From a virus, in the IMG/VR virus record IMGVR_UViG_3300045988_159113: a DNA stretch of 64,000 nucleotides; one strand, written 5' to 3'. How positions within the stretch are numbered: the first letter of the stretch is position 1; the number at the start of each line of letters is the position of its first letter. The notes under the pieces are model-generated. The model searched no databases. It was given only the letters and a program-made list of their open reading frames with translations, and was not told the origin of the DNA. The position numbers were made by a program, and so were the translations under genes. Below, one piece after another: positions 1 through 22,021 of this stretch.

Positions 1-2058
1 ATCGCTATCAATACGGAGACGCTCTTTTTCAAGCTGCATCTTTTCTTGGTCGTACTTCTCGATTTGCTTCTGGGCTTGCTACAACTGCTTTTGCATCTGC
101 TGTAGCTGCTGCTGTGATTCTTGCAGCTTCTGTTGTAATTGTTGGATTTGGTTATTTTCCGCCTTCTACTTCTCCATAGCCTACTTTACTTTAATCTTCA
201 AATCCGTCAAACTCTTACTAGTCAACGCTTCAAAAATGATATCCGGCGCTAGGGTCTATGATTGGATAAAGTTCGGAATTACTTGCATCAGCTTCGCCAT
301 ATCTTGCATGACATCTGTGCTGCTGCTTATATGTATATCGTAATCGCTAAGTGTGAAATGTTCAGGGAGAGCAGTGAATACTTTCTGGAATTTATCACCT
401 AGGATAATTGTCCCAGTTAGTCCGTTCTTGTATACTATCTTTGCCTCATTCAGAGCATCTAACAACATCTCGCAAGTCACGAGGTCCATTTGCTGATAGT
501 ACTGTTTGGTTATAGTGAATGAATTGTTTGCACTCAATTTTACATTACTCACTGCGTCCTTCTATTCGATACCGTTCAGTCGCTCCTGGAATACTCCGGT
601 GATACTGGACGCTGTCTCTTCTATGGACTACAAAGCAACCTAGATAGCTTGAATAGCCCCAACTTTTACGGTATCATCAAATCCATTGAAAATTGTATTG
701 ATAGGTGCCTGACCAGCAGCTGCTCGTCCTTCCTGTGAGGTGTCGATCAAGCCAAGGCCTCCCTTCTTATATGCTAGCCATTTCTGTATTCTCTCCGGCC
801 AGTTAACGCCAAGGTTGGTAGGGATAAGGCTTTCATCTATCCAATCACCAACTGTTCCACTGTTGGCAATGATGTTGTCTCTGTAATAATGTAAAAGATT
901 ATATCGATCTTGTAAAGGAACACAAGCCAGAACCAGAGAGTACGGCTGACTCCCTCGGTTTGTGAAATAGACCCCGTTGACTGTCAAGCCACAATAGCTT
1001 GGGTTGTCAATAGAACGCACAGCAGAATCATCTTTGCCTGTTAGGATATAGATGTCATCATTGATTCTAACTGTGCGATATCTGTTCATCACGAAATTCT
1101 TATCGGTTTCTATCCATTCAACCTCATATACAGGGAGCAACTTGTTGTATCTGTTGTTTTGCTCATCTGTTGGATAGCCTGGGATGATAGCCTCCTCTCC
1201 TGCTCTCAATCCTTGAGTAGCTGGAACTCCGTTATGCTCAAAGGTCCTAATGTAAGAGTACGAATAATCAGACGCTGCATCTTCCCATTCCTTTTCTATC
1301 TTCTCAACATCTTCACGCGATAAATCCTGACCGTATTGCATCAAGATCTGTGATTTGGAAAGCCATTTCCTGACAACTACACGGTACGAATCCTTGACAT
1401 ATGGAGATTCCGGATTTCGATCTATAAAGGTGTTTAGAGGATTCAATACTTCTATCTATACATTATTCCTGTTTACGCTCGGCTTTACCCTGTAAAAGCA
1501 ATAGCCAGTGATCAATATATCTAGCAATAACTCGCGGAGCTTTCTCATGATGTCGGTACTTCTCGACTGCATTAAATACTCGATGACATTCTGCGCTGCT
1601 ATCTCGTACTGGCTGGTGAAGTTTGTCTTCACGTCCTATATGATCTTCTGAAGCGCAGTCTCTATATTATGGTCGACAGTATCCTTGCCGTCTATAAATG
1701 AGAGGATATCATTCTTGAGTTTTTTCTGCATGAACTTGTAGACCTACTCGTGAATCTGAATCTATTTCTCCCTTTCCATCGCGCTGATAGTCTTGGAATC
1801 CTTGCAGGAAACCTTCGGCAATACCGGAGTACCAAGATACTCTCCGATCAATACGTCCACGTGTTTCTTAATAAGCGGTATGAATTCAACGGAAGTAGGG
1901 CTTCCTATTCCGAAGTTCTCCTCAAGGTATCTGTACTATTCGGAGTTCATCTTTCCGTTATAGTAGTTATACGCCTTTTGCAAGTCTGTCTTCTCGTACA
2001 CTAGCTCCGTGATGGCGTTGTCTGTACATTCCTGCAAGCGTTCCTGCTCTTTTGTCAT
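1..2058 (-). CDS. portal protein (3' end outside window); TAG read as sense
   Basis: ATG at 2058. Track ORFs 640..1446 and 256..552 are in the same frame and separated only by TAG (in-frame TAG at 1936,1762,1744,1636,1456,640,628,562,256,181). AYNYYNGK near the N-terminus and LQDRYNLLHYYRDNIIANSG are portal-like. Lies downstream of terL. Confidence 0.7.
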
Positions 2059-2084
2059 TATTATAAACTTTTAATATTTATGTC

Positions 2085-2831
2085 CTACTCTCCAACCATC
2101 CGTATTTTAGAATGGTAAGCATTAGGAAATTTCTTTCGTCTCACAAGATCCCACAAGTATTCACTGATAAAACCTTCCAGACGACGCTGCCATTTGATGT
2201 TTCCCTTGAACCAGTTGCCTTTTTTGAATTGTTCATTCATGAAATCCTCAACCTGTTTGTTTCCATCTATTCCAAAATAAGAATCAAACCGTTTGAGAAC
2301 ATCAAAAACAAAATGTGCACCTTCCATGAAATCATCGTGTTTCATAATGAACATGTTGCAATATGAGCATTGCGCATCTTCCAGAAAATCATCATAAACC
2401 GGCAAGTATGACCTGTCCGCTTCTCTTATTGCCAACCTTAAAGGATTAATGAAAATCGAGCTATGATAAACAGATATATTGACCTTGTTCATAAGCCCGG
2501 AGGACCAGGTTTTCGTATACACTGCGCCGTGCTTGTCAACTATATCACGCGCTTTTCCTAGATCTTCCATAAAGTCATCAAAAAACCTTCTGTAATGGCA
2601 GAAGCCGATATATTCAGGTATTAACTCCTCGTGCTCCATGACGTGTTTGATCTGGCAAGCTTCACCATAGCATATATTGTGCTTTTCCGTGAACTCATCA
2701 TTCATATATATAACAGGAGACAAATCATCAAAAACATTCTCATTTTGCGCAGCGATAAAATAGCCATCACTGTGTGGGTGATCTCCTGTTATTGTATTAT
2801 GCGCGCATATGTACATCCTCAAATCATCCAT
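2085..2831 (-). CDS. DUF4422-like glycosyltransferase-family protein
   Basis: Intact 248-aa ORF. Motifs YIGFCHYRRFF, CNMFIMKHDDF and RRLEGFISEYLW match my recollection of the DUF4422 family. No internal TAG. Ends at TAG 2085 with an in-frame TAA 8 codons later (2061). Confidence 0.65.
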   Translation of the reverse strand: MDDLRMYICAHNTITGDHPHSDGYFIAAQNENVFDDLSPVIYMNDEFTEKHNICYGEACQIKHVMEHEELIPEYIGFCHYRRFFDDFMEDLGKARDIVDKHGAVYTKTWSSGLMNKVNISVYHSSIFINPLRLAIREADRSYLPVYDDFLEDAQCSYCNMFIMKHDDFMEGAHFVFDVLKRFDSYFGIDGNKQVEDFMNEQFKKGNWFKGNIKWQRRLEGFISEYLWDLVRRKKFPNAYHSKIRMVGE

Positions 2832-3165
2832 TACTTACTAGATCTTTCTGTCCTATATGGTGTGTGCTGTGGTCTATCGGGCATGGCATATGACGCTCGA
2901 ACATATCGGTCTTGTATCCTGTGTAGAATTTCGTATCAGTCAACCGGCGACCATGAAGCTCTTTTTCTAGATATTCGAGAAACTTATCATCGTCTAGCTG
3001 CGCGCATATATGGAGAGGGTGCTCTGGATCATTCAATCCAAGCACAAGATCAATAGCTCCACCTGGTAATCTGTGAATATTCAAAAGGCCAACATAACAC
3101 TTGCCGTATACTTTAAAAATAGTTTCTAGGATCGCTTGAGCGAACTTGTCCGTAGCTGTAGTCAT
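2824..3165 (-). CDS. hypothetical protein
   Basis: Intact 113-aa ORF with ATG start and TGA stop. No TAG. 8-nt overlap with the downstream gene. Confidence 0.5.
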   Translation of the reverse strand: MTTATDKFAQAILETIFKVYGKCYVGLLNIHRLPGGAIDLVLGLNDPEHPLHICAQLDDDKFLEYLEKELHGRRLTDTKFYTGYKTDMFERHMPCPIDHSTHHIGQKDLVSNG

Positions 3166-4411
3166 TGGTTTGCAAATACATGTTAAAATTAGCCGTCATC
3201 TAGTTATTCTTTTTGATAGGTCCGAAATGTTTGATCCCTCGTTCGTCATAATAATATCCAAAATCAACAAACTCATCGTCTGCTTTTTTCTATGCCTACG
3301 GCGTGATTCCGGACAGCTCTTCATCTGCAAGCTCACATTCTCCCATAGCAGCCACGATATCAAACTTACGTTTGTTTTCGTCAGAGTATCTTGATAACTC
3401 ATCAAGCATTTCCTCAAACCATATATCGTAGCCATAATCAAGGACGAAATCCTTAATCAGGTCTGTCTAATGATCGATAACAGCAGGAGATGCTGGGGAT
3501 CCGTATTGCTACGTTTTACGTCTTGCTATATCTGGATATGTTGCAGATGGGCGTTTCATGAAGTAATTCAAGAGATGCCTATCACGTGCCCATGTCACCA
3601 TGGACATCCTCGTTGCCTCGATGTTAATCTGGCAGTTGTAATACATAGCAAGACCAATAGCTACCTCATAAGCTTCTCGTATATCATCCGGTCTATCTTT
3701 ATATATGGCAACGTATCTAGGCGTGCGATTGCCAAACGTGCGACGCTTGACAACCATACAGAAATCAGACGGATCTTTGTATGTTGATGATGTCTGCAAC
3801 ATACCGATATCAATTCCGTCAATACCGGCGACATATAGGTTGTTTGTTTTCTCTATCAGACCTTGAGACTCACCGTCTCGCTCTTTATCTTCTACCCATA
3901 GTGGATGCTCTAAAATCTTGATCTTGCCATCTTTGCAAGCATTCCATATAACGCTCTAAACATGGGCTCTATCAACCTTGCGCTCTGTATTCTTATACTG
4001 GAAACGTATGGTGCCAATATCAATAGGCGGACATTCATGCATTGCGCGGATGCGTGTGAGCTATTCGGCAATAGTTGCCCTGTTGAATTTATTCTGAACT
4101 CCAGAAGAAAAAGCCTCTGTATCATTGAACGGATACTCTGCACAGTGATCAATGAGTGCAGCAGGATCAGAAGCCATAGCTGCACGAATCTCATTTTGCC
4201 ATTCTACAACAGCGTCAGGATCAACAAATCCTCTATGCGAAAGAAACCGCTTTCTATCTTTTGGTATCTTGGTGCAAGGTATGAAAAAAGAAGTCAACAC
4301 CTCTGCACCGTTTTGCGTGTATCTGTGCCGATGTGGGAGAATACCGTAAACCTCAGGATGGTAAAACATACGCTGTAATCCATCGAGTGATTCCTTGGTG
4401 TCTCCAGATGT
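3113..4411 (-). CDS. terL: terminase large subunit, C-terminal (nuclease) segment
   Basis: Track ORFs 4061..4441 and 3509..3802 share one frame and are joined by TAG codons. Sequence TSGDTKESLDGLQRMFYHPE... through ...YVAGIDGIDIG is terminase-like. The last in-frame TAG is at 3200; the first TAA is at 3113. Confidence 0.65.
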
Positions 4412-4608
4412 CATAATATTTTCGTCAATGCTTTTTATCATTGCTCCTTACGCTTTCACGTAAGATTGGCGTACATTTTCCAGTATTAACTGGTCGGGCA
4501 CTCTTGGAGATATTATTTCAATCTCTACGCTCTACATTTAACAACTCGGTGTCGGCAGTTAAGCGTTCACCGATTTTGCCCGATTTTATACGGGGGCCAT
4601 CTTGGTTA
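4412..4608 (-). other. 197-nt intervening sequence splitting terL (candidate group I intron, or a gap between two terL polypeptides)
   Basis: The upstream terL frame closes at TAA 4606-4608 directly after ...VCGG. Deleting exactly 4412..4608 joins GGT (4609-4611) to ACA (4409-4411) in frame, giving VCGG-TSGDT. The segment starts after a U and ends in G. It contains several short hairpins plus AAGGAG 5 nt before an internal ATG (4441). Confidence 0.4.
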
Positions 4609-5592
4609 ACCTCCGCACACACGTATTCCCCATGACGCATTCATGGGACCAACAAGCGCCGTTGCCTGGATGTATGCCTTAGCAAAATTCTTCCATGAAC
4701 CTACCTCGTCCATGGCAAGAATATCCAAACGGAATCCACGCAACTTGCTTGGGTTATCTGCGACAATGCCGATAATCTAAGACATCCATCCTACCTCGAT
4801 TTTTTGTCCGTTGATTATCTTATAATGAGAGGATCTTTTCCAATCAGTGGAATCTTTCACCTATCGTAATTTAAAAAATCCGCCATCAGTGTTGTCGTTT
4901 AAAAAAGCCAAACAGTTCCAGATCTTACCGATAGTGTTGTCTAAATAGTCAGATCTATGAGTGGCTAACATGTTTATGGAATTTTTGATGCAATTATAGC
5001 TGTTGGCTAGAATTGCTGAAAGCATCTCAGAATAACCTACCTCTCGTGCTTTCATTATCACGGCATTCCTTCTGAGTCTTTTACACATCTCATAATAATG
5101 AAAAAACTCATATTGCCCAGCATAAAAAGCCGGGAAAATAAAAAGACGACCACCACCTGACTTTTCAGTGTTGTCAAGGTCCATAAGCTGGAAATAATTC
5201 AAGAAAAAATAATTGTCACCAGTTATGGTGTAGCCGTTCACGGTCATCCCGTGCTTGCATCGCTTATATTCCTCAAGCCAAAAATCCTGGAATGCTTTCG
5301 TCCCTTTATGGAACTACGTATAGTGTCCAGTTCGCAAGAAAGAATCCCTCGCCTCAGTGAACCAGTCAGGATCGAAATCTAGCCCAGATGTTTTGTTTAT
5401 CGGAATGTATCCAGTAAGCTCATAAGATAGATCAGTATCAAAAAATACGATCTCTTGATCAATAGGTATATCCCACTAGCCTTTGTGCTCGCTTTTTACC
5501 TATTCAACAATTGCATCTTCATCATGAATATCCTTGAGCATTACCTCGTCAACAATTTTCTGTATCTCCTCAGGATATTGTACATTTTTCAT
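4609..5592 (-). CDS. terL: terminase large subunit, N-terminal ATPase segment
   Basis: ATG at 5592. Includes track ORF 4861..5247 extended through in-frame TAGs. Walker-B-like RLDILAMDEVG. The frame differs from the C-terminal segment. Confidence 0.7.
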
Positions 5593-5595
5593 AAA

Positions 5596-6186
5596 TCAAA
5601 AATCACCTTCGGGCATAAACCCGTCTTCTGCTCCTCCTCGTATGGACGAACGTTCCGCCAGCTCCTTCTTTACCTGACTCTCTAATGTTGTCAGAGAATC
5701 ATGAAGCTTGTTCAATGAGTTGATCTCCTGAATCAAATTCTTCACCTAAAACATCGGCTTTCCTGTCAGTTCATCACGCTCCTCAGGATCTATATTGACA
5801 AAATAGTTTGCTATCTTATCAATCGCAAAACGCGCTGACTCTAAGAGTCTAATGCTCCGGTCCTAGTTCTACATCTCCTAAAACTTACGACATGCTTCCC
5901 TAAACACCGGGTCATTAAACTCTTCATCCGTCAGTTGCGAATCTTTGAGCGCCGCCTCATGGCGTTCTCCCTGAGATATGTCGCTATACAAAGAATGCCA
6001 ATGTAAAGCAAGGTAAATATAAGTAAGCTCGCGAAACATACGTAGTCCATATTCACCAGTTGGATCTTCCTTGCACTTATTCCGCTCTGGATCAGCAAGA
6101 TCAGCAAACTCCTTGATCAATAAGATCTCAGGACGGTTGATCTCAATACGATTGTGAGCAGAATCATATACAAAGAAATTGTTCAT
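5596..6186 (-). CDS. hypothetical protein upstream of terL
   Basis: ATG at 6186; track ORF 5878..6186 extended through TAG codons to TGA at 5596 (591 nt, in frame). The position would fit a small terminase subunit, but no motif was seen. Confidence 0.45.
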
Positions 6187-6535
6187 AAATTATTTATATT
6201 TTAGTAGCCTTGTGCTTTTAATCTTCACTGTGCTAAACGAGCTGCAATTTCCTAATTGTACAAGTCATTCAATCTTTAATAGTTGCCGTTTCCGAAAGAC
6301 TTAATTCCGGAGTTAACCTCATATGTATTTTTATCAATAGGTATAGATTTATTGGTTCCGGTCTATTCAAGAGAGTATATTGTATCAGGTACAGTCTCTG
6401 GCACTATTTTCAAATATTCTTTTGATGGATACTTTATTTCTCTCACAAGATTAACTCCTTCATAATAATCTGGGAATAAATCATCTGCATTTTTATTCAA
6501 CGCATTTGCAACATCGTTTCTATGTACATCTTTAA

Positions 6536-7099
6536 TTACTTGCTTCTTAGAAACTGCCTCCTTGTCTGATATATCTCAGCACGGATTCCGTTCATTGCGC
6601 GGGTAACAGCACCCTTCCTCATCTTCTTGCCGCATTTTGCCTTCTGAACTGCCTTCTGCTCTTTCTGCTTACATACGGGACACATAGAACCACCGGCTGC
6701 ATAATATGTCTTGTAATATCCTTCGGGGCATTCACCTTTGAGACTGCGAATAAAATTCAACTTTGCCCCACGACGTGCAGACTGTACTGATGCCTAATCA
6801 ACAACTGCCTGAATCAACTGAGTAGCTGCGCCAGGCTGAGATAACTGAGCAAATGCTTCGGGATTATCATTCTCCAACTCCTCAGCTCCTGCCTCAACGA
6901 GCTCATCACTTGCAGCTATCTACTCCAGAGTCTCTGGTTGTTTGGATATAAGCTGAGCAACCTAACTGACAACGTCCTATATGCTGGTGTCGTTGCCCTA
7001 CTGCTTCTGATATCCATAGAAACCAATGATAGCCTTCTGAAGCATGGCGTCCTGCTGATCTTCCTAAGCAGCGCCGCCTTGTTCGTAATAGTTAATCAT
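6536..7099 (-). CDS. hypothetical protein with C-terminal cysteine cluster
   Basis: ATG at 7099. The N-terminal part is interrupted only by TAG (about 6). The C-terminal part is track ORF 6536..6760 (GECPEG...CPVCKQ). Confidence 0.45.
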
Positions 7100-7118
7100 A
7101 TATTAGTGTTTTATTTTA

Positions 7119-8435
7119 TTAGTTAAAAATTGCATCTCTCCCACTATTTGTTATATTGTAATTTTTGTAGAATTGATTATAGTTTCGTTGTAGTGCATTA
7201 TTATACTCTTCAGTGTCAAGCTTATCTTTACCGAATTGTTTGATAAATGCATCACGGAACTTTGCTGAGTATAATCTGTGCAATTTCATTGAACTTATGC
7301 TTCCTTTAGCATGATATCTCTATCCTTCATCTATTATTGGCTATGCTACCTATTTGCCTACATTAGCCCAGAAATTACTAATGGTTATTTGTGGCTATGG
7401 TTTAGCGTCAGCTTGCATAGACCCATCAGTTCTCCACCATCCCATGTTTCCGTTTTTGTCAAGGTATCTTCCGGTATTATAATATTTTGTGCCATCTTTA
7501 GCAGTTATTTCAGAAGTACCGTCTCCTAGAATTCTTTGACTCCATCCTTGGCCAAATATTCCGTTAAATTTTCGCATAGTCTCATTGCCAAATTTACCAT
7601 CAGCACCAGTTCCTACTAGACCTTGCCATGTAGTCAAATCATTGCCTTGCCAGTTGTATGATGGAGTCCATGCGGATCTCCGACGTGACGCATTACTCTA
7701 TGGCGCTGGCTATGCATTTACCTATGTGTTAGCCGTTTGCTGTTTCCAAGTCGGCTGCAACTTCTGAGCATATGCTGTCATAGCGCCAGGCGTATATCCT
7801 CCCTGATACTATTGAAGCATATTCTAAAAACTCTAAGAGATAGGTGTTTCTGTAGGTTTCTGCCAATTTCCATGGTCCCAATTTGCGCGAGATGCATTTT
7901 GATGTTCTGAAAAATATTCATGAACACGTCTGTTTGCATCGGCTTCAATAGTTCCAGCTTTAAAATTGTTATCACTATACATCCCAGCATTTTGTCGGCC
8001 ATTACGAATCATATCCATAGCATTGCGTCTATTAAACTGCTAGCCGCCAGAGAAATTGCTGGCCATCTGCATATTCGCGCCATTCCAAACAACAGCATCC
8101 TATCCAAGAGCACGTAAATCATTTTTAAGTCTACGCCTCTTACCAAGACCTCTATAACGGCTGCTGTTCAGATTTATAATTTTCTGATTGTTATAGAAAT
8201 CAGGATTCCTATTCTATGACTACTGATCAGCTTGCTGCTCATGGTCGTTTACTGTCCCTTGCTGCTATCCAATAGGCTTGTATGTTTCTGAACCTGTATG
8301 TTCTGGTTTCTATACTGCAGCAGGCTGCCTAGTAAACGACAAAGAAGATGGGTCAACTGTAGACCAATCAGGCATAGTATAGTTTAATGTAGTTCCGTCA
8401 TCACGATACGGTACACCCTTAAAATCTTCAGCCAT
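7119..8435 (-). CDS. hypothetical virion protein with peptidoglycan-binding-like motif
   Basis: ATG at 8435, TAA at 7119 (1317 nt). Joins track ORFs 7833..8018 and 7395..7637 through TAG codons. GADGKFGNETMRKF resembles a PG-binding repeat. Confidence 0.5.
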
Positions 8436-9287: not shown

Positions 9288-9521
9288 TTACCATTTATTT
9301 AATTTACATTTCTCATCTTTTACTGTTATCTTACTCTCTATTATACAGCCACACTTTTTGCAAATAAATCCAAAAAGTGGTATATATAGTTTTTGATCGC
9401 ACGAACGGCAAGCCGCGTATCTCTTCCTGGAAAACTCAGGATAAATATGGAATAAGTTCTTGAAATTCCCTTCGAGAATATTCCACATTTTATGAGCGAT
9501 CATCAAAATCATATTCACCAT
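9288..9521 (-). CDS. Cys-rich small protein (paralog of 9515..9778)
   Basis: ATG at 9521 overlaps the upstream stop. CRSC...CKKCGC...C..NKW C-terminus is shared with its neighbour. Confidence 0.4.
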   Translation of the reverse strand: MVNMILMIAHKMWNILEGNFKNLFHIYPEFSRKRYAACRSCDQKLYIPLFGFICKKCGCIIESKITVKDEKCKLNKW

Positions 9522-9778
9522 TTTCCTGCAACACATTCCGCTGTCGAATTACTCCATTTAAATTTTAACATACAACCGCAACCTCTAACAAATCCTTTGC
9601 GTGCTTCAAAAGCAATATCATCATTTTCTGGATTTATCCATAGATTGCTATTACATATTCCTCCATGACTTGAGGAAAATATTGGGCACTTCTCACATAT
9701 CTGTTGCCTAATTTCGATGTAATCTTTGTCTAGTCCAAGCTTCTTACTTACATCTTCATCAAGAAATTTCTCTATCAT
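9515..9778 (-). CDS. Cys-rich small protein
   Basis: Intact 87-aa ORF. CEKCP...C...GCGC...C..GKW. Confidence 0.5.
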   Translation of the reverse strand: MIEKFLDEDVSKKLGLDKDYIEIRQQICEKCPIFSSSHGGICNSNLWINPENDDIAFEARKGFVRGCGCMLKFKWSNSTAECVAGKW

Positions 9779-9781
9779 AAA

Positions 9782-10609
9782 TCAAAAAATTAAAGGTTTC
9801 ATTTTCTGCATAGTGTCTTCATGTTTTAGCTTCTTCTGATAATATGAAATCATATTCTCCACTTCATCCTTCAGATAGTCACACTTGTACATAGTACCAG
9901 CACCTGTTGTTGGATCAATGTGATAGATTATGAGTTCCTTGACTTTTAGCTCTGGTTTTATTTTTGTCAACATCCAGGCATAAGTAGACACTTGTAGTTG
10001 GTACTCGTTAAAATTACAATTGTCAAATTTGTTTAATGGATACAGCATCCGTTGTGTTGTCCTTGTCTGCTGATTATAGGACGCAGCTTTTTTGTTAATC
10101 TTACTGTTAGTTTTGAAGTCAATGACAATGATATCATTGAGATCTTTAACTAGAAGGTCAACTTTACCATTTAGTCGAAAATCACCGTCCTCGTACCTGA
10201 TAGAAAATTCAGAATACGCGCCGCGAGGTAAGTCCAAATCTGAGTAGTCATTCATAAATTCAAACTTACCTCCCAGCCCGAATCGTTCCAGGGTCTGTTT
10301 GCCGCCCTTGAAGGAATCCTCCAGCTGTTTGTGGATGATAGTTCCACGGTCACAGGCGTCTTGTTTGCTTTTCTGCCACTGATCAAGTATATTCTGCTTT
10401 TCCCGATTGAAGTCTGTTTCATTTATATCATACAACATCAACAGGTCCGTGTCTATCTTATGTTTAGAAAGTACCGATTTTTTTTCAACCTACCATCTGT
10501 CTTTTGGTATCAATCTCTCGAGTGCTTTTACTCCACTCCAAAACTCCTTATCGAAGGGCGCTACAAATGAGTGAATTAAATCGGTTACATTTATATTATG
10601 TGTAGACAT
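9782..10609 (-). CDS. PD-(D/E)XK (Cas4/RecB-like) nuclease
   Basis: ATG at 10609, one in-frame TAG, then track ORF 9782..10441. Motifs GTIIHKQLE, GKVDLLV...IVIDFKT and LQVSTYAWML. Confidence 0.55.
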
Positions 10610-10645
10610 TTTTCCGTTCTCCATTTAAACATTCAACATTATAAT

Positions 10646-10879
10646 TTAATCTTTGGATGACTTACTCTGAAACTCTAACAGTTTAGATTTGTATGAGTAA
10701 TCCATACCAATTAAGGAACCAGCGAAAGTACACGTTTCACCAAATGCTATAAGTACCGAAGAGTGAATCACGCCCATTGGTGGAACTGTAAATCCAGCGA
10801 CAAGAAGCAACAGTCCAGCGGTCAATATTACAGAAGCCATGCGGAGCTGAAATCTTAGCTTCCTTTCTTTCTGATTCAT
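10646..10879 (-). CDS. small membrane protein (two hydrophobic helices)
   Basis: Intact 77-aa ORF with two hydrophobic stretches. Confidence 0.45.
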   Translation of the reverse strand: MNQKERKLRFQLRMASVILTAGLLLLVAGFTVPPMGVIHSSVLIAFGETCTFAGSLIGMDYSYKSKLLEFQSKSSKD

Positions 10880-10935
10880 ATGAAACTTAATTTTTAAAAA
10901 TTGACATATATCTTGATTGGTTTATATTCTACGCA

Positions 10936-10956
10936 ATAATACTATTATTGTTACAT
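10936..10956. promoter_or_regulatory. near-palindromic divergent late promoter box
   Basis: CAATAATACTATTATTGTTAC reads TAnTATTATTG on both strands. It lies between divergent genes starting at 10879 (-) and 10972 (+). Confidence 0.45.
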
Positions 10957-10971
10957 AAAATAGCAGCAATT

Positions 10972-11610
10972 ATGGTACATCTCTTAAAAAAGGGATCCGG
11001 CATTCATATAAAAAAATCACATGAGGGAAGATTTACGGAATATTGCGGAGGCAATGTGACAGAAGAATGCATACGGAGAGGGAAAAACTCCCCGGATCCA
11101 AAAATACGAAAACAGGCAGTCTTTGCATAGAATGCCAGAAAATTCAAACACCAAGACGGCGGCTCCATTTATGGAGCACCTTAGATATAGACAAATGGAA
11201 ATCTCTCGCAGCAATGGAAATAGCAGCAAGAGATGGCTGCGCAAAATTTCAACCAAAGCATGGAGTGGGAAAAACAGCTTGATGAAATGAAGCGCATGCA
11301 AGAATCACAGGCTCTTGGTAAAAGCATAGGAAATACTGTTGGCTCTTTAGTTGGTACCGGTATGCAAGCAATTGCACAAAATATCAGAGAAAGAAGAGCT
11401 GGTAGCGAAGAAGGAGAAGTGAAAGGAAATTCTCAACAGCCAACAGTACCATAGGCTACGACATCATATCAAATGCCATAGCTTCCAACATCATTGCAAG
11501 GAATTAACAACATGATGAGAAATCCTTTCGCAATTCCACAACAAATGCCTACTATGATGAACGGTGGCAATATAGAACGCTTAATCAGAAAAATAGACAG
11601 ACATGGATGA
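10972..11610 (+). CDS. hypothetical Q-rich protein
   Basis: ATG at 10972. Track ORFs 10948..11130 and 11233..11454 are in the same frame, joined by TAG. Ends at TGA 11608-11610. Confidence 0.5.
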
Positions 11611-12868
11611 ATTGTTCTCTACATATAAGGCCGTTGAGCCGATGCTAGTATAGGAAGAAATAGAAATCCCAGATTTAAATACAACATCAAGATATGATAC
11701 TTTTCTTGAAACATTAAATAGGTACAGAGAAGCATAGGGTCAAAAATAGCCAGAAGCATAGAAACAAGATGATAACCAAAACTGGTTCACTAATACAAAA
11801 ATAAGACAGACGACACCTTCTGTCTCAAACCTCGCAACAGCTATTGACTATACAACAAAAGACCTATAGACGATGTTGAATGAATAGGGGCTTGATAAAT
11901 ATATAAGAATAACAAGTGGATTCCGAGATCATAATGTAGGAAAAGCTGGCAACAGATCAAATCATAGAAAGAAAAACAAACACGGACATTCTATGGCTTA
12001 TGATATAGCTCCAGCATAGGGAGAAACTTTTGATTCTATATATTAGAAAATGAAGGAGAACCCTGCAATGTAGCAATGGTTATCTCAAAATGGTTTTAAT
12101 ATAAACGACGAAACAGATGCTGCAACATTAAGACGGACAGGAGGAACTGGTGCTCATTTTCATATTGGACCTGATAAGTTTAATATTAGAAAAGGATAGT
12201 CTGGTTTTGATACGTCAAATTTGTTTTCGGCATATAAAGCTGTAGAGTTACCTATTAAGCCAATCATTAAACCGGTAATTCCAAACATTGAATATAATAG
12301 TACAGGTATGCCAGATATATATATTGGTAGCAACACGCCAACTTAGCAAAGCGAATAGAAAGCTGATGATGACCAGTCGTGGTTCTCAAATACAAAACTA
12401 AGAAAAACGCCAACTGCTCCTGTAGTATTACCAAAGTAGAAAGAGAATGAGGCTGCAATAAATAGTCCAACTTTTGATTCTGATTTTCAAAAATTCGGAA
12501 CGTCAAAAATATTCTCTGATCACAAGAATTTCTGGAAACGTCTTGCATTTTCCGAATCAAGCCTAAATTCATAGGCTTCAAATAAAAGCGGAGCTTTCGG
12601 ATATTTTCAGATAATGCCACAGTCTAGAACTGGGGTTGACGTAGCATCTCAATTTAAAGATGCGGAAAAATTAATGACATCACACATGTCATTAATAAAC
12701 GACGAAGATCGCAAACTAGCACAACAAAAAGGAATAACAGAAGAAGGACTGATGGCTGGCGTTTGGCTAGGAGGTCCTGGAGGAGTAAAAAAAGCACTGA
12801 GAAGTCAGGGAAACGCAAAAGACTCGAATGGTACATCAGTGATGAGTTACATGAAAAAGTTTTCGTAA
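11603..12868 (+). CDS. cell-wall hydrolase: LAS-type zinc peptidase domain plus lytic transglycosylase domain
   Basis: ATG at 11603 (ATGGATGA overlap), TAA at 12868, 1266 nt with 14 in-frame TAG. SGFRDHN...HGHSMAYD...AHFHIG (H-x6-D ... H-x-H). ESSLNS[TAG]ASNKSGAFGYFQIMPQS is an SLT-like signature with a TAG inside it. Confidence 0.6.
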
Positions 12869-14045: not shown

Positions 14046-14061
14046 TGCAAAAATATTTATT

Positions 14062-14080
14062 TTGCAATTATAATATAAAA
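14062..14080 (-). promoter_or_regulatory. late promoter box
   Basis: Minus strand reads TATATTATAATTGCAAA about 17 nt upstream of ATG 14045. Same box as at 15526, 32577 and 33218. Confidence 0.45.
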
Positions 14081-14184: not shown

Positions 14185-14208
14185 CGAAAGTTTTCATTAT
14201 CAATTTTT

Positions 14209-14713: not shown

Positions 14714-15027
14714 TAACATTCACATTTTATACATTTAACAAACTTGAAATCATCATGAGAACCAGGAAGATGGCTCAGATCAGGGCGAGTAGATACAATC
14801 GTATATACCCCATTAAAAAAATAGTATAACTCAACCGTCCTCCCTACAACGTCCTCCTTACGTTGCCCGTTTGAGTTAAGCTCACAAAAAGCCTTCTCTA
14901 AGTCATCTTCCTTTATGTTGTCTCTTATGATTTCTATATCATTCTCATCAAGCTTTAATTTCTTCAGCTTCTTTTTCAAATCGCGACACTGAAACAATTT
15001 CTCGCGATATTTGAATATAGTTCCCAT
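14713..15027 (-). CDS. hypothetical protein
   Basis: Intact 104-aa ORF ending in TAA. Confidence 0.5.
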   Translation of the reverse strand: MGTIFKYREKLFQCRDLKKKLKKLKLDENDIEIIRDNIKEDDLEKAFCELNSNGQRKEDVVGRTVELYYFFNGVYTIVSTRPDLSHLPGSHDDFKFVKCIKCEC

Positions 15028-15045
15028 TCATTCGCTCATTACTAG

Positions 15046-15121
15046 TAGGGACGCCAGGATTCGAACCCGGTCCAAGAGGGTTAGAGCCTCCTGTGCAATG
15101 AACCACATACACCACATCCCT
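15046..15121 (-). tRNA. amber suppressor tRNA, anticodon CUA (reads UAG)
   Basis: Minus strand folds as a cloverleaf: acceptor AGGGATG/CGTCCCT, D stem GTGT/GCAC, anticodon stem GGAGG/CCTCT with loop CT-CTA-AC, T arm CCGGG-TTCGAAT-CCTGG, discriminator A. Confidence 0.85.
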
Positions 15122-15130
15122 ATTTAGTAA

Positions 15131-15502
15131 TCACATTCTCATATTTTCAAGATTATGAATTTTCTTTCCTATCACCGCATTCACACACTGCTTGAACTCA
15201 TTGATGCCATGACGAACGGCACCATAGTCTTCAGTAGAATCACAAAGCTCTGCAAGCTTTCTAACACCTCCATCAGTCGTCTTGTTCATAAGATCACAAG
15301 CCTCAACAAAAACATCATCATCAAGTCTTGCTATCTGCTCACGAAATTCACTGATGAACTCAGGAACACTTGGCTCCTCGGTGATCTTTACCATGTAGCT
15401 GTTGTCATCAAAATCATACTCAACAACACGATCACCACTTCTAAACTTTCCCTTCGGGTTCTTCTACGCCGCACTAAGCAGCTAACTTATCATATCCTGC
15501 AT
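15131..15502 (-). CDS. hypothetical protein
   Basis: ATG at 15502, two in-frame TAG, then track ORF 15131..15394 (372 nt). Confidence 0.45.
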
Positions 15503-15525
15503 ATTGTCATTGTTTATTGGTTACA

Positions 15526-15545
15526 TTGCAATCATAATATAAAAA
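15526..15545 (-). promoter_or_regulatory. late promoter box
   Basis: Minus strand reads TATATTATGATTGCAAT upstream of ATG 15502. Confidence 0.4.
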
Positions 15546-15601
15546 ATGCCAAAACCCAAATTTTTTGTGTTAATTTAGGTTAAGGCATATGTTAAAAAGT
15601 G

Positions 15602-15904
15602 TCACAGCGAATAAAGTATCGCTCCGATCATCATAACTACGGAATTCAAAACTCCACCTAGCGTTGTAAACAATACGTCGATCTTATCTGCTCGATAGTC
15701 TACCGCTTCTTTCACAATACCAGCAACAGCAGCAACAACAACTCCACCAAGGGAGACAGCAACGACAAGCCAACCAGTCAACCCTTCCTACATGGATAGG
15801 ATGTTTGTTATAATCGATGCTATCACGTAACCAAGAGATACATGTTCCAAAAGGTTTGTGTGCTCTTCAAAGAAAGAGCGCAACCTTTTCTTTAACTTAC
15901 TCAT
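15602..15904 (-). CDS. membrane protein (about 100 aa)
   Basis: ATG at 15904, one in-frame TAG, TGA at 15602. Hydrophobic stretches LGYVIASIITNIL, WLVVAVSLGGVVVAAVAGIV and LGGVLNSVVMMIGAILY. Confidence 0.45.
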
Positions 15905-15910
15905 TATTTA

Positions 15911-17710
15911 TTAAATTATAGTCCAACCTTTCGCGAGAGCTGCGGCTTTCTATTCGTCGCTAATCGCCCACATCGCGTTTTTCTTTAATGTTGCAGATCT
16001 TACAAGGCTTGTGCTCGCATCATCATCGCCTTTTTCTATGGTCAGATCTGTCAAGTTATCAATCAAATATGCTATACTGTCAGCATCCAAAGCTGGAAGC
16101 CAAGACGAGAAATCCCAATTGCCATGATTCAATCGCTAGATTCTTACATCTGTCAGCTTATCGCAACCATTGAATGCATTTTTTATGTTAATCCCCTCGG
16201 GCTTGACATATCGCATATCAAGCACAGGACCTATCTTGACAAGGTTATTGCAAGACTCAAAAGCCTATGGCATAAATTCTACAATAAGCAAATTATCATC
16301 AGCAAATCTATCCGTGCCATATTGCGGTATCTCTGTGATCTTGAAGCAATAATCACAGAACCACCCGATGTTCGTACTCCTGTATGCTCGCGTTTCATCA
16401 TTCACATACGCAGCGCTCCAATGAATACTCGGAAGCTCCAAGAGATTATTGCACTGTTCAAAAGCTGCTGATAGATCTCTTGCCCATGCTACCTTGTTCA
16501 TATGGATATGGCGCACCTCATGCATCCCTCCAAACATTCTATGCATAGATGATACTGCAGAAGTGTTGTTGAATGTTAATTCGTCAATATTGGTGCCACT
16601 CCAAGCATAACCGCCAGCCATGAATTCGATATCAAAATTGAAGGTCCAGTGGCCTTTCATGTCTGTATTATCCTTAAACCACGCATCGTCTGGATTCGCA
16701 TCTCCGGTAGTAAAAACTGCATAATTACTGAATACCTTAGTCTTACAATACTCTTTGAGCTACTACACAAATGCATCATTCCACATTCTGCCGGTAAACT
16801 GGACATATTCGACAGTCTCTACCTTACTCTCCGTATTATAGGAATACTTAACCAATCCATCCATGTTATCCAAAACGGGCATATAGGATCCGTTGCATTT
16901 GTGGATGATACTCTTGACGCCAGTGGACCAATCTCTAACTACAGTATCAACGATACCGTGATAGATAAGATTATCAAGATCCTTGACTCTATGATATACA
17001 AGATTCTCACCGATGTATGCATTATAGCACTCGCTCTTCGTTTTGTCAATAGGCGGTGTGAATTGCTTAGTGTGATAATCTAACCCGTCAACACTAACGA
17101 GCACATTTTGCATTTCAAGTCTCACCTAGTCTATGGTTCTTATCTTTGGCTTTATAACAACTGCTATATGATTACTGCCTACTCTATGTATAGTGACCGT
17201 GCGCTTGTCCTGGCTTATATCTGCAATACTTCCATGGCTCGTATCAACAATAAACTCAGAATCATCAAAGCGGCCATCTAAGAAATTTATAATGATGGGA
17301 TGATCACCGAAATCAAGGCATGCGTTGTCTTTATCGTCCTTAAAGTTGCTATCATTACCCCATAAGGTGATAGCTTCACACCATGGCTCATTTTTCCAGC
17401 CATTAGCCGCGAAGTTCTTGGTCATCCCTTTTGTTATATTCTTATTGCGACCGTCTTGAATATAACCCCAATAATGTGCTCCATTATTGAGATCTTTAAG
17501 AGCACCACCAGGAACACCTAAATCCCAAGGCCACCAGTAAATCCAATCGTTATTATAACAAGGAGCAAACCATAAACCGCGAACGTAATATCCGCCAGCA
17601 TCAGATGCGTATTTATACCAACTCCATAACGCATCACCCTTAGGTTTAGGTTCTGGATAAGAGAATCTCAAATGAACGACATCCTGGTTTCCTATTTTTA
17701 ACCCACTCAT
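15911..17710 (-). CDS. tail fiber / receptor-binding candidate with BspA-like leucine-rich repeats
   Basis: Track ORFs 17126..17710, 16763..17125, 16265..16660 and 15950..16132 share one frame and are joined only by TAG, including tandem TAG-TAG at 16760-16765. Repeats FEQCNNLLELPSI, FESCNNLVKIGPV and FNGCDKLTDVRI. Runs through TAG 15950 to TAA 15911. Confidence 0.55.
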
Positions 17711-17850
17711 TTGATAGCATATAAAACATTATCACTTTTTGGATCTAGTGCATCATACTCATCCTAAGAAAGTATTTGCACCTTGTCGCGGGCTGTCTAA
17801 TCACAAAGATCGTATACCTAGCCCTTTATGGTTATTTTGCTTATTTCCAT
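17707..17850 (-). CDS. small protein (47 aa) with fiber-N-terminus-like EYDAL...LYAI motif
   Basis: ATG at 17850, 3 in-frame TAG, TGA at 17707 overlapping the next ATG (ATGA). Confidence 0.35.
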
Positions 17851-17870
17851 AATGTAAAAAATTAATTCAG

Positions 17871-17894
17871 CAACAATTATAGTATTATTGTGTA
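17871..17894. promoter_or_regulatory. near-palindromic divergent late promoter box
   Basis: CAACAATTATAGTATTATTGTGTA gives TAGTATTATTG on plus and TACTATAATTG on minus. It lies between starts 17850 (-) and 17919 (+). Confidence 0.45.
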
Positions 17895-17918
17895 TAATTT
17901 TATAAATTTATATTAAAT

Positions 17919-19601
17919 ATGGCAAACGAATATAGAGCGAAATCATTCGCAGATGCTTTCAGACAAGCACGGAGAGATATCGGTAGTGGGGGGCAAGCGG
18001 TTTGGATCCGACCAAACGGCACACGCATGGTATTCAACACAAACCTCAAAGAAGAGATACCTGTAAATCAAACCGTTTATTCTCCTCTTCTTTCTAGCGA
18101 AGATGAAAGATTGGCGGAAAGAAGGTACAAAGAAGCTTTGGAATCATCAAGAAGAGCTTTGGCTTCAGAAATCGGTATTAATTTAGTACAAGGCAAAAAA
18201 GTGCCAACAAAAATGATACCATAGCTTGATGTACAAAACAAAGAGGTTGGAATATACCAAATTAATCCAAACGCAAGCTCCGAGGAAACAAGATGGATCA
18301 AAACACTTCCATAGATAGATGTGATTGCACAACGTACACATCACAAAATGAGAAAAAATTCCCAAACAGGAGAGCTTGAGTCTGCATAGGAGAATTTTTA
18401 CCCAGTTAAACCTGATTATGAAATTGGAAAAGGAAATAGTGTTCATTATAATTTCAACACAGGTGAATATGAGATGATAGATAAAAACGGAGAAATTCTC
18501 GCAACATCACCAGATGGTTCTGTTCTATCTGATCCTTCACTCTGGACTCAATCTCATAATGGAAGAAATGGAGACATCGAATAGTCAAAATAGACATTCG
18601 AATAGCAGAAAGCAGCAGAATAGATGGCCAACATGAGAAGAGACGAAGAAAATCACACAATCAATAGCCCATTACATATTCTTACAGATGAAAACGGGAA
18701 TATAGTTGTAGATAAAAATGGCAAACCTATATATAACGGATAGCTTACTACAGATCAAGTAGTAGATGGAATGAATTATGGCAAACAAATTTTCGTAGAT
18801 GCTGTTTAGAATTTTGGGCTCGATGGAGTCAATCACGCCATATTAGGCGGACTCAAAATGGCAACAGATGGAGATTATACATCAGACGATTATCTGAACG
18901 GATTCTTAGCATCCAAAGATCATGTAGGAGGAGCAGGAGACTTTTTCGAGGTAGAAGGACCAAAATCAAGATTCGCTTTGAATCTTATAAACCCAACATC
19001 ATTATTCACACTCGGGGCTACAACAAAGTTCAAATTGCCAGAGATGACTGTCGTAACAACTAAAGGATAGCCAATTCGCCTCAGTGTTCCAAATGCGCCG
19101 GCATCAATGTATAGAAGAGGAATGCAAGCGAATGAAGGAATGGGAACAATAACAAGAAATGTTGGACGAGGAGGACAAAAGTCTTGGGTCTAGCATGGAG
19201 GCAAACATGTTGCTGGTACAGGTTCACATATCGAGGTAATACCAACATAGAGTACAGGATTAATGTACACTCCTGGCGAAATTAGTATGCGACCACTCAC
19301 AACAATGACATATGATCTCTATCCAAAGAGGATATGGGAAACAAAACCAATCATACCAGCACTTAACGTGGAATATGAAGGTGGGCCAGAATCAACAGGC
19401 TATCAGTATGAAAGAATGTTAGGCAATCCTGATGAAGTAAACTCTTCGGCAGCACCAGATGTAGCAATGCCAGGAAATGTTACTGTAAACGGATCAAATG
19501 ACAAGATAAACAGAGGAAGATCAAACGGAAGAAGACTCCTCAAGAGAACAAAAGCAAGAAAATCAAGATAGGAAACAGGAAATATCGACATAAGTAATTA
19601 A
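17919..19601 (+). CDS. hypothetical virion protein (560 aa)
   Basis: Track ORFs 17919..18224, 18858..19070 and 19263..19571 share one frame. About 13 in-frame TAG. TAA at 19599-19601. Confidence 0.5.
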
Positions 19602-19603
19602 TT

Positions 19604-20131
19604 ATGTTATCAGTAGAAGAAAGATTGAGACGAAAAGACGAGCTCATCAAAAATGGCTATAAAGTAGAACGAAACGCTAGCTGGGGACCAAACCTCAATA
19701 AGATGTATATGTCTATGAAAGCCAAAACTCCAAAAAAGAAATCCTGGGCACAAAGCGTAAAAGATGAAGGTCTAATCTCTGGAACGATGGATAAAATGGG
19801 AATAACAAATCCATACGCAAAGGTAGCAGCAGAATTTACTCCGTTAATACCAGGAATCGGAAACTATATCTCAGCAGCAAATGCAATTACTGATTTAGGA
19901 CGCGGACATTTCAAAGATGCTGCGTGGAATGCATTGTATGCACTACCTGTAGCAGGAAATGTAATGAAAGGATTAGGAATGGGAGCAAAAGCTCTGAAAG
20001 GCTTGAACGCAGTTGGAAGAGTAGGCGGCATAGCACAATGGGGAGATGTAATCGGACAGACAGCAGCACCAACAATCAAAACAATAAGGGACGCATGGAA
20101 CGACCCACAAACGGAAGAATATTATGGCTAA
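19604..20131 (+). CDS. hypothetical protein, Gly/Ala-rich C-terminal half
   Basis: Intact 175-aa ORF with no TAG. Confidence 0.55.
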   Translation: MLSVEERLRRKDELIKNGYKVERNASWGPNLNKMYMSMKAKTPKKKSWAQSVKDEGLISGTMDKMGITNPYAKVAAEFTPLIPGIGNYISAANAITDLGRGHFKDAAWNALYALPVAGNVMKGLGMGAKALKGLNAVGRVGGIAQWGDVIGQTAAPTIKTIRDAWNDPQTEEYYG

Positions 20132-21026
20132 TAAAGCACAGACAACAAAAAAACTGCTTACATCAAAAGCAGGAAAGAAAGGAATCCAATGGACAGTTGG
20201 ATAGGTGAAGAAAGGAATCACCTGGCTTGGAGGAGGACAAGGTAAAGTAAATCGGAAAGCAGAATAGTATGTCGAAAAACAAGCTGAATCACTAAAGAAA
20301 GCAAAATCAGCATAGAGTAAGGCAACACGCAATCTGAATAAATCAATAGAAAGCGTGACTGGAACAAAATGGTCAAGCCGAAATGGATATCCTCAAATGA
20401 CAGGAGAATTGGCAGAAATGAAAGCTGCAAGAGATTTGCTTGCTAGAAATACAGCAAGAGAAGCAAAAGCATTCAAGAAAATGTCCGGTCTTGCAAGACA
20501 AAAAGCAGAAGACGAAGTACTTAGATCTGGACTCACACGTGCAGGGATCGGAGGCGCAGCACTACTTGCCGGTATACCTGTATATAACGCTCTGACAGAT
20601 GAACCAGAAATGTATGATGCTAGTAATCTGCAAGCAATTGAACCAGAAGTGATTGAACCCGAAACATTACCTGGATCAGGAGTAGAAAGCCTCAGATATT
20701 ACGCAAGAGATACAGACCCATACTGGAATAATGGGAACCCTATCATACAAAATTCAGATGGCACACTCTTCATAAATGGACAACAGTTCGACGATAGAGA
20801 TAAAGCCGCAGCAGCTGCAGCAGGATTCGATAATGTGTTCGATTATAAAGCGGCAAGAGCAGGACTGAGCAGCAGAGAAGAAGTTGCGGAATTACAACGG
20901 CAACTAGGATTGAAACCCGATGGACTGTTTGGAATAAATACAGAAAAAGCATACTACGATTATATGAGATCAAATCCACAAGAAGTGGCAGATCGATATA
21001 TATCTGACGGATGGATACAAGTGTAA
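20124..21026 (+). CDS. hypothetical protein with C-terminal peptidoglycan-binding-like motif
   Basis: ATG at 20124 overlaps the previous stop. 3 in-frame TAG, then track ORF 20355..21026. LQRQLGLKPDGLFGINTEKAY resembles PG_binding_1. Confidence 0.5.
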
Positions 21027-21030
21027 AAAT

Positions 21031-21060
21031 AAAAGGAGACCAGAAATGGCCTCCTTTTTT
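21031..21060. terminator. intrinsic terminator between convergent genes
   Basis: AAAAGGAGACC-AGAAA-TGGCCTCCTTTTTTT. Confidence 0.6.
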
Positions 21061-21079
21061 TATGCCCCCCCCCTGGGGT

Positions 21080-22021
21080 TTATTTACGAAAAATATTTCC
21101 TCCCCTCTTCTAATATAAAACAAACGGCTGTAAAAATTCGACTTGACCAGACTATCCAATTCTAGCACTTCCAGGATAAATCCGCTTGTTCCAAACATCT
21201 ACAAACGCAGCCTTCTACTAAGGACTAACAGCAGCCTTCCACATGTCATATAAATCCTTATTATGAACAGCCGTATTGTTTAGCTCAGTGAAAGCATTTC
21301 TCGAAAATCTTAGTGCATTACCATCTCTAGCACCCTGTCTGACAATAGCAGCATAACTGTCAGGGCTTAAACCAGATTTGTGAAGACCCTTGTCCGCCAC
21401 ATCTTCCAATAAGACTTTCACAGCACCACGATGAGAACCCTGGTTCTTCATGAAACTACCCAATGGAGCAGATGCAAAATCTCCGGATAAATAAGTACCA
21501 GGACGTACAATCTCACGAATAGTAGACCAAAAAGTACGCATGTCTTCCTTCGGAATGACATTCCCCAACTCATCTAAAACCTTACCAGTGTCCTGCTTAT
21601 ACTCAACACCAGGAGGAGTCAAAATGACATTCATCGTACCGTTCTCATATGGAGTAGCTGATAAAGTGCCCCAACCAGCCTTTCCACCATTAGATGGAGT
21701 AACACCATAACCAGGTAATACCTTACCACTAGAAGGAAGAAATACTTTCTTCCCATCCGGCATTGTTATCAAACCATCAAGAGTACGCTTCGGGCCAGAT
21801 TGAATCATATGCCTAACACCAGGAATATCACCAGGCTTCGCAATATCACGCCAAACATAACGCTTGCCATCAAATAAAAACTTGTCTGCCTTAGACTAAG
21901 TAGAAACCCATTTCTCATAATCCTGCAAAGCAGCACGCTGAAATTTGTTTAAAGAGCCATAAGCTCCCTTAGATAAACCCAAAATCTCACGAAGAGAGCG
22001 AGAAACTATTTTCGAATTCAT
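21080..22021 (-). CDS. hypothetical protein
   Basis: ATG at 22021, one TAG, then track ORF 21218..21808. The standard-code stop is a tandem TAG-TAG (21215-21220). The frame stays open to TAA 21080, next to the terminator. Confidence 0.45.

Follow-up and report, generated by a model that had tools for sequence, protein, structure and literature searches.

Can the packaging, virion and lysis-type genes at positions 1–22021 of the IMG/VR virus record IMGVR_UViG_3300045988_159113 be translated in full only if the stop codon TAG is read as an amino acid? We addressed this question in a 64,000-nt stretch of the record, referred to here as the window (G+C 39.8%), which represents 64 kb of a crAss-like phage genome estimated at ~150–200 kb. 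A reading made from the sequence alone had proposed that the late genes in the window use genetic code 15, in which TAG encodes glutamine (Gln, Q). Our analysis supports a recoded block of late genes in code 15, a phage tRNA with the anticodon CUA as its decoder, and a remainder of the window that is compatible with the standard code, all in a crAss-like phage; we assign this explanation a probability of roughly 0.9. The labels "early" and "late" are based on gene content and strand.

Late genes are open only when TAG is a sense codon

Open reading frames (ORFs) were listed stop-to-stop on both strands, with TAA and TGA as the sole stops. The main features of the recoded block are as follows.

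1..22021, both strands: recoded block, ~21 ORFs bounded by TAA or TGA, with 108 in-frame TAG in 6,351 codons
1..2058, minus strand: portal, N-terminus at 2058 and C-terminus beyond the window; 12 in-frame TAG; phrog_6547, E=9e-50
3113..4411, minus strand: TerL exon 2, nuclease part; 7 in-frame TAG; TAA stop at 3113..3115; phrog_6681 profile 332–734
4609..5592, minus strand: TerL exon 1, ATPase part; 5 in-frame TAG; phrog_6681 profile 49–308
7119..8435, minus strand: unannotated late ORF; 16 TAG in 438 codons, the highest of any gene
11603..12868, plus strand: SLT (lytic transglycosylase) domain protein; 14 in-frame TAG; phrog_3310
15911..17710, minus strand: unannotated late ORF, 599 aa; 6 TAG including a tandem TAG-TAG
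17919..19601, plus strand: unannotated late ORF, 560 aa; 13 TAG
21080..22021, minus strand: last recoded ORF, at the block boundary; 5 TAG including a second tandem pair

The in-frame TAGs make up 1.7% of the codons in the recoded block, which corresponds to 31% of its Gln codons if TAG is read as Gln. Within the late ORFs, TAG occurred about as often in frame (108) as off frame (~96 per frame), whereas TAA and TGA were never found in frame, against ~162 and ~234 off-frame occurrences per frame, respectively. ORF coverage was calculated from stop-to-stop ORFs of at least 150 aa in two bins, 1–22050 and 22050–64000. In the first bin, coverage rose from 0.357 with code 11 to 0.857 with TAG as a sense codon, compared with 0.53 and 0.55 for the control recodings in which TGA or TAA was made sense. 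In the second bin, TAG as sense gave the smallest gain, from 0.69 to 0.76, with the other two recodings reaching 0.84 and 0.90. The gain in ORF length anticipated by the sequence-only reading was thus obtained (0.36 to 0.86 in rounded values, with the controls at ~0.54).

Family matches (PHROG/Pfam) to the portal, TerL and the SLT domain continue through the TAGs. For the protein at 11603..12868, the Pfam SLT match covers residues 307–344 with 22.1 bits against a cut-off of 21.3, and one TAG lies within the SLT motif region, ESSLNS-TAG-ASNKSGAFGYFQIM. The TAG counts previously given for individual genes were reproduced: the portal, said to hold at least 10, contains 12; all 14 were recovered in the 421 sense codons of 11603..12868, including the one following ESSLNS; the estimate of about 13 for 17919..19601 is exactly 13; and the tandem TAG-TAG of 15911..17710 was found among the 6 TAGs of that gene. 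Two other statements were incorrect or went too far. That neighboring pieces of a gene always share a frame and are separated by TAG alone does not hold for TerL, whose pieces lie in different frames with a 197-nt insertion between them. The description of the block as the structural half is documented in part: family matches are limited to the portal, TerL, the protein with the SLT domain, a PD-(D/E)XK-like exonuclease and a GroES-like protein, and most recoded ORFs received no annotation from Pfam or PHROG, including the TAG-richest ORF at 7119..8435, for which both searches gave no match.

The boundary of recoding is sharp and lies at ~22.0–22.3 kb, with the portal, TerL and the SLT-domain protein on one side and a sigma factor, a replication initiator and ordinary tRNAs on the other.

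TAG is a glutamine codon in the recoded block

A megablast search of the phage collection with the 1–22 kb region gave zero matches, and relatives were therefore sought at the protein level. A tblastn search with the portal revealed distant crAss-like relatives with ~23% identity and three unannotated human-gut contigs with 55–66% identity. Among these three, MT835470 (117 kb) is a standard-code genome and MT835539 is TAG-recoded. A scan of IMG/VR contributed 33 further portal loci, so that 36 portals were aligned in total; related contigs and loci are designated below by L and a number. The closest relatives of the window are three contigs of 143–197 kb with 96–98% nucleotide identity to it.

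The 36 portals comprise 24 that contain in-frame TAG as their only in-frame stop and 12 without any in-frame stop, i.e., in the standard code. In the 81 distinct TAG columns of this alignment, Q fills 37% of the cells of the standard-code portals against a background of 6.5%, and it is the majority residue in 36 of the 81 columns. Enrichment opposite TAG was 5.7-fold for Q, 2.1-fold for E and 1.7-fold for K. When only TAG columns with at least 80% agreement among the standard-code portals were considered, Q was the residue in 12 of 21, and alignment column 40 contains only Q (19 sequences) or TAG (16). The TAG columns sit within conserved blocks rather than in gaps or at protein ends, a possibility that the sequence-only reading had raised; only one of the 81 is a gap in the standard-code portals. 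In the comparison with MT835470, the residues opposite 31 TAGs of the window were Q (26%), E (19%), K (13%), D (10%) and R (10%), and genuine CAA/CAG columns gave Q 33%, E 11% and K 10%. The substitution profile of TAG thus mirrors that of the CAA/CAG columns, unlike that of E, K, Y, W, L or S columns.

More direct evidence was obtained from the window and the three near-identical genomes. The three contigs have 124 TAG positions in common with the window, and 20 of the 22 TAG differences are exchanges between TAG and CAG. Per comparable codon, the TAG–CAG rate was 0.061, compared with 0.060 for CAA–CAG, 0.058 for AAA–AAG and 0.068 for TTG–CTG; exchanges of TAG with TGG, AAG, GAG, TAY, TTG, TCG or TAA each amounted to 0.004 or less. 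Synonymous differences outnumbered non-synonymous ones by 550:136, which indicates purifying selection across the TAGs. Taken together, the exchange of TAG with CAG at the synonymous rate and the purifying selection identify TAG as a fully synonymous Gln codon and not as a lesion. The two codons replace each other as neutral synonyms in co-occurring genomes of 97% identity, so that the reassignment is complete and its turnover continues. For crAss-like phages, Peters et al. (2022, PMC9523058) have reported peptides that carry Gln where the gene has TAG.

Two observations on codon context and on a relative are added here. An A precedes in-frame TAG in 56% of cases, compared with a background of 30% and 24–34% before CAG/CAA. 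We considered this bias as a signal of suppression context, but it was not consistent in nine recoded relatives and was left as a quirk of the lineage. MT835539 (L006/L002) has a G+C content of 29% and 46 TAGs in its portal, and its first 12 kb show very low ORF coverage in any code.

A predicted suppressor tRNA within the late gene cluster

The candidate decoder of TAG is encoded in the recoded block itself.

15045..15121, minus strand: suppressor tRNA with anticodon CUA; found by ARAGORN; Rfam tRNA model 47 bits against a gathering threshold (GA) of 29

The tRNA gene lies 9 nt downstream of the stop of the recoded gene 15131..15502, on the same strand and within the minus-strand late cluster. 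ARAGORN labeled it "tRNA-Pyl" based on the anticodon alone. The anticodon loop (C-U-CUA-A-C) and the T-arm are canonical. We compared it with the identity set of E. coli GlnRS (a weak 1:72 pair, G2-C71, G3-C70, G10, U35 and G73); A1-U72, G2-C71, G3-C70, G10 and U35 are present, and the discriminator is A73, which the phage's own tRNA-Gln(UUG) also carries. Positions 8–14 (UGGUGUA) are identical to those in the tRNA-Gln(UUG) genes of the window and of MT835539, and overall identity to the two Gln tRNAs compared is 42–59%. The suppressor probably descended from a glutamine tRNA.

The three near-identical genomes carry the suppressor tRNA unchanged (100% identity), against differences of 2–4% in their protein genes. 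A homolog in a divergent phage (L042, a 103-kb contig) has the same anticodon arm and a canonical D-arm, and other recoded relatives encode CUA tRNAs with U1-A72 and the same D-arm motif. A scan for the sigma-70 consensus around the suppressor tRNA gave results at chance level.

Unusual tRNAs were also observed in relatives. L025 (103..192) and L027 (303..391) encode CUA suppressor tRNAs of 89–90 nt whose body is Gln-like and whose variable region is extended by an unpaired insertion of ~18 nt. In MT835539, no CUA tRNA was found within 55 kb; the contig encodes an 85-nt tRNA (6356..6440, complement) with the anticodon UUA, which would pair with UAA and, through wobble, with UAG.

The remaining 42 kb are compatible with both codes

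Beyond the boundary, the window has a different character, and its main features are listed below.

22290..64000, mostly plus strand: block compatible with both codes, without in-frame TAG; gene ends nearly all TAA or TGA
30951..31730, minus strand: replication-initiator/DnaD-like protein (Pfam/PHROG)
32600..33164, plus strand: ordinary tRNA cluster, Lys-UUU, Leu-UAA and Gln-UUG (ARAGORN, Rfam)
40097..40774, plus strand: sigma-70 family factor; Pfam Sigma70_r2 and r4; phrog_351, E=1.4e-46

The sequence-only reading described the long ORFs from 22.3 to 61.3 kb as free of internal TAG, with TAG as a rare stop, and this was confirmed. In plus-strand genes of at least 100 aa there were 0 in-frame TAGs in 10,430 codons, compared with ~160 per frame off frame, and 3 of the 51 genes of at least 100 aa in the 22–64 kb region end with TAG. 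In the two large TAG-ending genes, a backup TGA follows after 2 and 4 sense codons. The region also encodes hexapeptide beta-solenoid paralogs and a glucosaminidase; most of its genes, many of them small, have no assigned function.

Proposed explanation and its alternatives

Based on these results, we propose that the packaging, virion and lysis-type genes of the 1–22 kb region use code 15 and terminate only at UAA and UGA. The code 15 proposal for the late genes is upheld by the gain in ORF length, the Q enrichment, the interchange of TAG with CAG, the CUA tRNA, and the distant kinship with crAss-like phages, whose Zeta group is described as recoded in late genes (PMC7886860, PMC12386605). 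Decoding of UAG would most likely proceed via the phage CUA tRNA at 15045–15121, presumably charged with Gln by the host GlnRS and competing with host release factor 1. The other 42 kb of the window contain no in-frame UAG and end almost always in UAA or UGA, and hence should be readable by an unmodified host ribosome straight upon infection. Late genes, with up to 16 UAG each, would yield full-length proteins only after the suppressor accumulates. As the suppressor immediately follows a recoded gene in a late operon, the UAG-bearing mRNAs and their decoder would arrive together through late transcription. The early/late timing and any regulatory or anti-host benefit of the recoding are inferred, as are charging with Gln and competition with release factor 1. 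The sigma factor at 40097..40774 is a candidate for the driver of, or switch to, later transcription.

A more specific possibility, which we regard as doubtful, is that the suppressor is wired into the late operon as a feed-forward "code-switch cassette", such that late transcription would switch the code and supply the UAG-rich mRNAs at once. It is based on the position of the tRNA 9 nt after a recoded gene and apart from the ordinary tRNA cluster, and on its remodeled D-arm. It differs from the published model, in which the genes for the code change are expressed from the standard-code early region.

Several results weigh against the explanation in code 15 with a phage decoder. Four ORFs of the recoded block contain no TAG at all. 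The D-stem of the suppressor is weak (G-C, U-G, G-U, U-U), and its discriminator A73 departs from the G73 of E. coli tRNA-Gln. Searches of the 64-kb window with Pfam and PHROGs did not find a release factor (including RF2), GlnRS or another aminoacyl-tRNA synthetase, or other genes for a code change. Upstream of the late operons and the tRNA, no common late-promoter motif was found, only AT-rich k-mers. Furthermore, TAG stops are equally rare in the standard-code relative (4 of 86, compared with 3 of 51 here). We had considered the depletion of TAG stops in early genes as an adaptation to the suppressor and rejected this, since a rarity that is as pronounced in a standard-code relative is no evidence of such adaptation.

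The rival explanations differ in whether TAG is read at all, as which residue, and by what. That the TAGs are real stops, in a decaying pseudogenized remnant or through sequencing or assembly errors, would fit the fragmentation of every large late gene in code 11, but we consider it next to impossible. A single stop codon interrupts the genes, with 108 TAG against 0 TAA or TGA; the 124 common TAG positions occur in three independently assembled genomes; the same TAG-only pattern is seen in 24 of 36 portals; and the 550:136 ratio speaks for selection on the sequence across the TAGs. Neither TAA, TGA and frameshifts at a similar density nor relaxed selection past the first TAG was seen. A TAG that is sense yet encodes Glu, Lys, Tyr, Trp, Leu, Ser or pyrrolysine is highly improbable. 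E and K are the second and third commonest residues opposite TAG, the tRNA-Pyl label points to pyrrolysine, and the tRNA body is divergent from the two Gln tRNAs (42–59% identity). However, Q clearly exceeds E and K in fold enrichment, and the same spill-over into E and K occurs in genuine Gln columns; TAG exchanges with CAG at the neutral synonymous rate and almost never with AAG, GAG, TGG, TAT/TAC, TTG or TCG; no pyrrolysine machinery was seen in the window; and proteomics of related phages gave Gln (PMC9523058).

It is also unlikely, if less remote, that the decoding of TAG is supplied by the host, through a suppressor or a code-15 host, with the phage CUA tRNA dispensable or non-functional. 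The degenerate D-arm of the suppressor would agree with this, as would the recoded MT835539, which lacks a CUA tRNA in 55 kb, though it has the tRNA with a UUA anticodon; in the literature, too, recoding and detectable suppressor tRNAs agree imperfectly (PMC7886860). In-frame TAG, however, is wholly avoided in 42 kb of the same genome, an argument for TAG still acting as a stop during the translation of those genes. The tRNA is fully conserved in three genomes that differ by 2–4% in protein genes, and the homolog in a divergent phage has an identical anticodon arm. Moreover, the crAss-like phages with known hosts infect Bacteroidota, for which the standard code is established knowledge (bioRxiv 10.1101/2021.08.26.457843).

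TerL is split by a predicted group I-type intron

The TerL gene is interrupted by an insertion that TAG readthrough does not bridge.

4412..4608, minus strand: predicted ORF-less group I-type intron of 197 nt, splitting TerL between the G-G and T-S-G-D codons

The TerL halves at 4609..5592 and 3113..4411 are in different frames, with the 197-nt insertion between them. Exon 1 ends in ...GGA GGT, so that the last base of the 5' exon is U; the first codon of the intron is TAA and its last base is G. Excision of 4412..4608 restores the frame and the sequence ...C-G-G|T-S-G-D.... TerL is one uninterrupted ORF in MT835470, L008 and L026, and the intron is lacking in L008 and L026, both of which are 97–98% identical to the window. 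Based on the structural evidence below, we interpret 4412..4608 as a group I-type intron.

Related inserts were found in the TerL genes of other loci, in sizes from 193 nt to 1.1 kb. The site of the window is also occupied in L018 and L039, and a site 6 nt downstream is occupied in L024, L029 and L002. L007 has its TerL intron at another site (L007 7028..7220; residue ~186), which L002 also uses, and L035 has an insert at residue 686. The versions in L029 and L002 are ~1.1 kb long; that of L029 contains a 305-aa ORF with two LAGLIDADG-type motifs (Pfam E ~0.002–0.003, below the cut-off). In IMG/VR, full-length ORF-less copies occurred in at least 40 of 120 pattern-selected loci. A search with nhmmer revealed only one copy of the family in the window.

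Nine intron copies could be aligned to a common core, in which 91.8% of the proposed pairs form, compared with 26–42% when the partners are slid. Compensatory change was observed in 28 of 45 pairs, a number reached by 0 of 500 shuffles. Two crossing helices have the topology of the P3/P7 pseudoknot, and both covary. All copies follow ...GGT and end in G. The P1 guide pairing is perfect in L018, and the window, L039 and L007 each form 5 of 6 pairs; the three copies inserted 6 nt further downstream gave no guide sequence. The Rfam model RF00028 gave no match at E≤10 on the window intron. It is the top match on L024 (16.8 bits, E=0.049, against a GA of 50), where the weak alignment coincides with the independently derived P3, P4 and P8; the gathering score was not reached by any copy tested, including 13 further copies.

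We also considered that TerL is made as two separately translated polypeptides, given an AAGGAG before an ATG at 4441. This was rejected, as the AAGGAG sits in a conserved hairpin region of the intron, the TerL halves of relatives are contiguous, and excision restores G-G-T-S-G-D.

Two side observations concern other inserts. In L099, a canonical Rfam group I intron (88.9 bits) adjoins a copy of the compact family (9344..9597 and 9734..9977, both on the minus strand). In L039, the portal match at 10001..12280 exceeds those of the other relatives by 222 nt and has in-frame TAA and TGA, which points to an inserted segment, possibly an intron, within the gene.

Relation to known systems

A tblastn comparison with Crassvirales portals gave 21–27% identity, with E down to 3e-18. 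The order from TerL to portal is that of Suoliviridae cr273_1, with two small ORFs between them in the window. Judged by portal and TerL homology and by gene order, the phage is a distant crAss-like relative (Crassvirales); its portal and TerL are only ~23% identical to those of classified members.

Yutin et al. (2021, PMC7886860) described reassignment of TAG to Gln or of TGA to Trp in crAss-like phages, "mostly in late genes", with suppressor tRNAs, code switches between close relatives, and an intron-rich Zeta group with genomes of 145–192 kb. Borges et al. (2021, bioRxiv 10.1101/2021.08.26.457843) proposed that standard-code early genes set up a code change that enables translation of late and lysis genes. 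The window resembles such code-15 crAss-like phages in that TAG as Gln is confined to one contiguous packaging, structural and lysis unit, the rest is compatible with the standard code, and a tRNA-Sup(CUA) is encoded; among its kin, too, recoded and standard genomes are interleaved at short phylogenetic distance (24 versus 12 portals). It differs in that the suppressor lies inside the recoded block and not with the other tRNAs in the standard-code part, and in that no RF2 or aminoacyl-tRNA synthetase gene is present in the available 64 kb. Backup stops after TAG have been reported in Zeta phages (PMC12386605). Membership of the Zeta group is plausible: the contigs of the nearest relatives (143–197 kb) compare with the reported genome range (PMC7886860; PMC12386605), and TAG recoding, introns in core genes and backup stops shortly past TAG stops are common to both. 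The characteristic RNA polymerase and DNA polymerase genes of the group do not fall within the 64-kb window.

Compact group I introns of ~206 nt split terL in the "Jug" jumbo phages of gut Bacteroides, with splicing observed in metatranscriptomes (PMC12880540). Like these, the window intron is ORF-less, ~200 nt long and located in the terL of a gut phage; both families include related introns with homing-endonuclease ORFs, and presence varies between close genomes. The window intron differs in belonging to another, recoded phage lineage, in that no copy reaches the RF00028 threshold, and in being known from sequence alone. As a weaker reading, some of the "unknown forms of gene fragmentation" that have been described for Zeta crAss-like phages might be explained by this widespread family of ~200-nt introns.

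The E. coli suppressor supE is a tRNA-Gln with the anticodon CUA that inserts Gln at UAG in competition with RF1. It would be the mechanistic analogue of the window tRNA. Suppression by supE is partial and acts at rare sites, in contrast to the up to 16 UAG per gene in the window, which would therefore need very efficient decoding; the window tRNA also differs in being phage-encoded and in its unusual D-arm.

Recoding, its likely regulatory logic and its proteomic validation have been published, and the window is a clean further example of a known phenomenon; the compact intron that splits terL is likewise of a kind already reported. The departures worth noting are the suppressor inside the late operon and the intron-split TerL. 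The window adds a well-resolved case in which a genome of a large crAss-like lineage is partitioned between codes, and the evidence at the population level, from the interchange of TAG and CAG at the neutral synonymous rate in 97% identical genomes, is unusually direct. For annotation, translation table 15 is needed for the late genes and intron-aware models for TerL; standard pipelines shatter the portal, terminase and tail/lysis genes and miss the identity of the phage.

Other observations in the window

The minus-strand cluster that contains the suppressor tRNA also includes a 101-aa ORF (15602..15907, minus strand) that has one TAG and several hydrophobic segments; from its sequence, it could be a holin-like membrane protein.

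The motif AAACGTNAAANTAGTC, followed by ...TGTAT, occurs in five copies on the plus strand, at 23265, 24259, 24991, 25026 and 25883. Each copy is upstream of one of the first non-recoded genes, and 0.75 copies are expected by chance; the motif probably serves as a promoter or operator element of early genes.

A single diversified gene family takes up about 13 kb of the non-recoded block. The region 47927..61255 (plus strand) contains 13 tandem paralogs of 261–350 aa that overlap by a few bases and have 21–46% mutual identity; none has a Pfam or PHROG match. Smaller sets of paralogs are found on the plus strand at 33484..35004, 35412..37060, 37365..39121 and 39118..39975, and comprise two phrog_11581 proteins, three paralogs of ~190 aa and three hexapeptide/beta-solenoid proteins.

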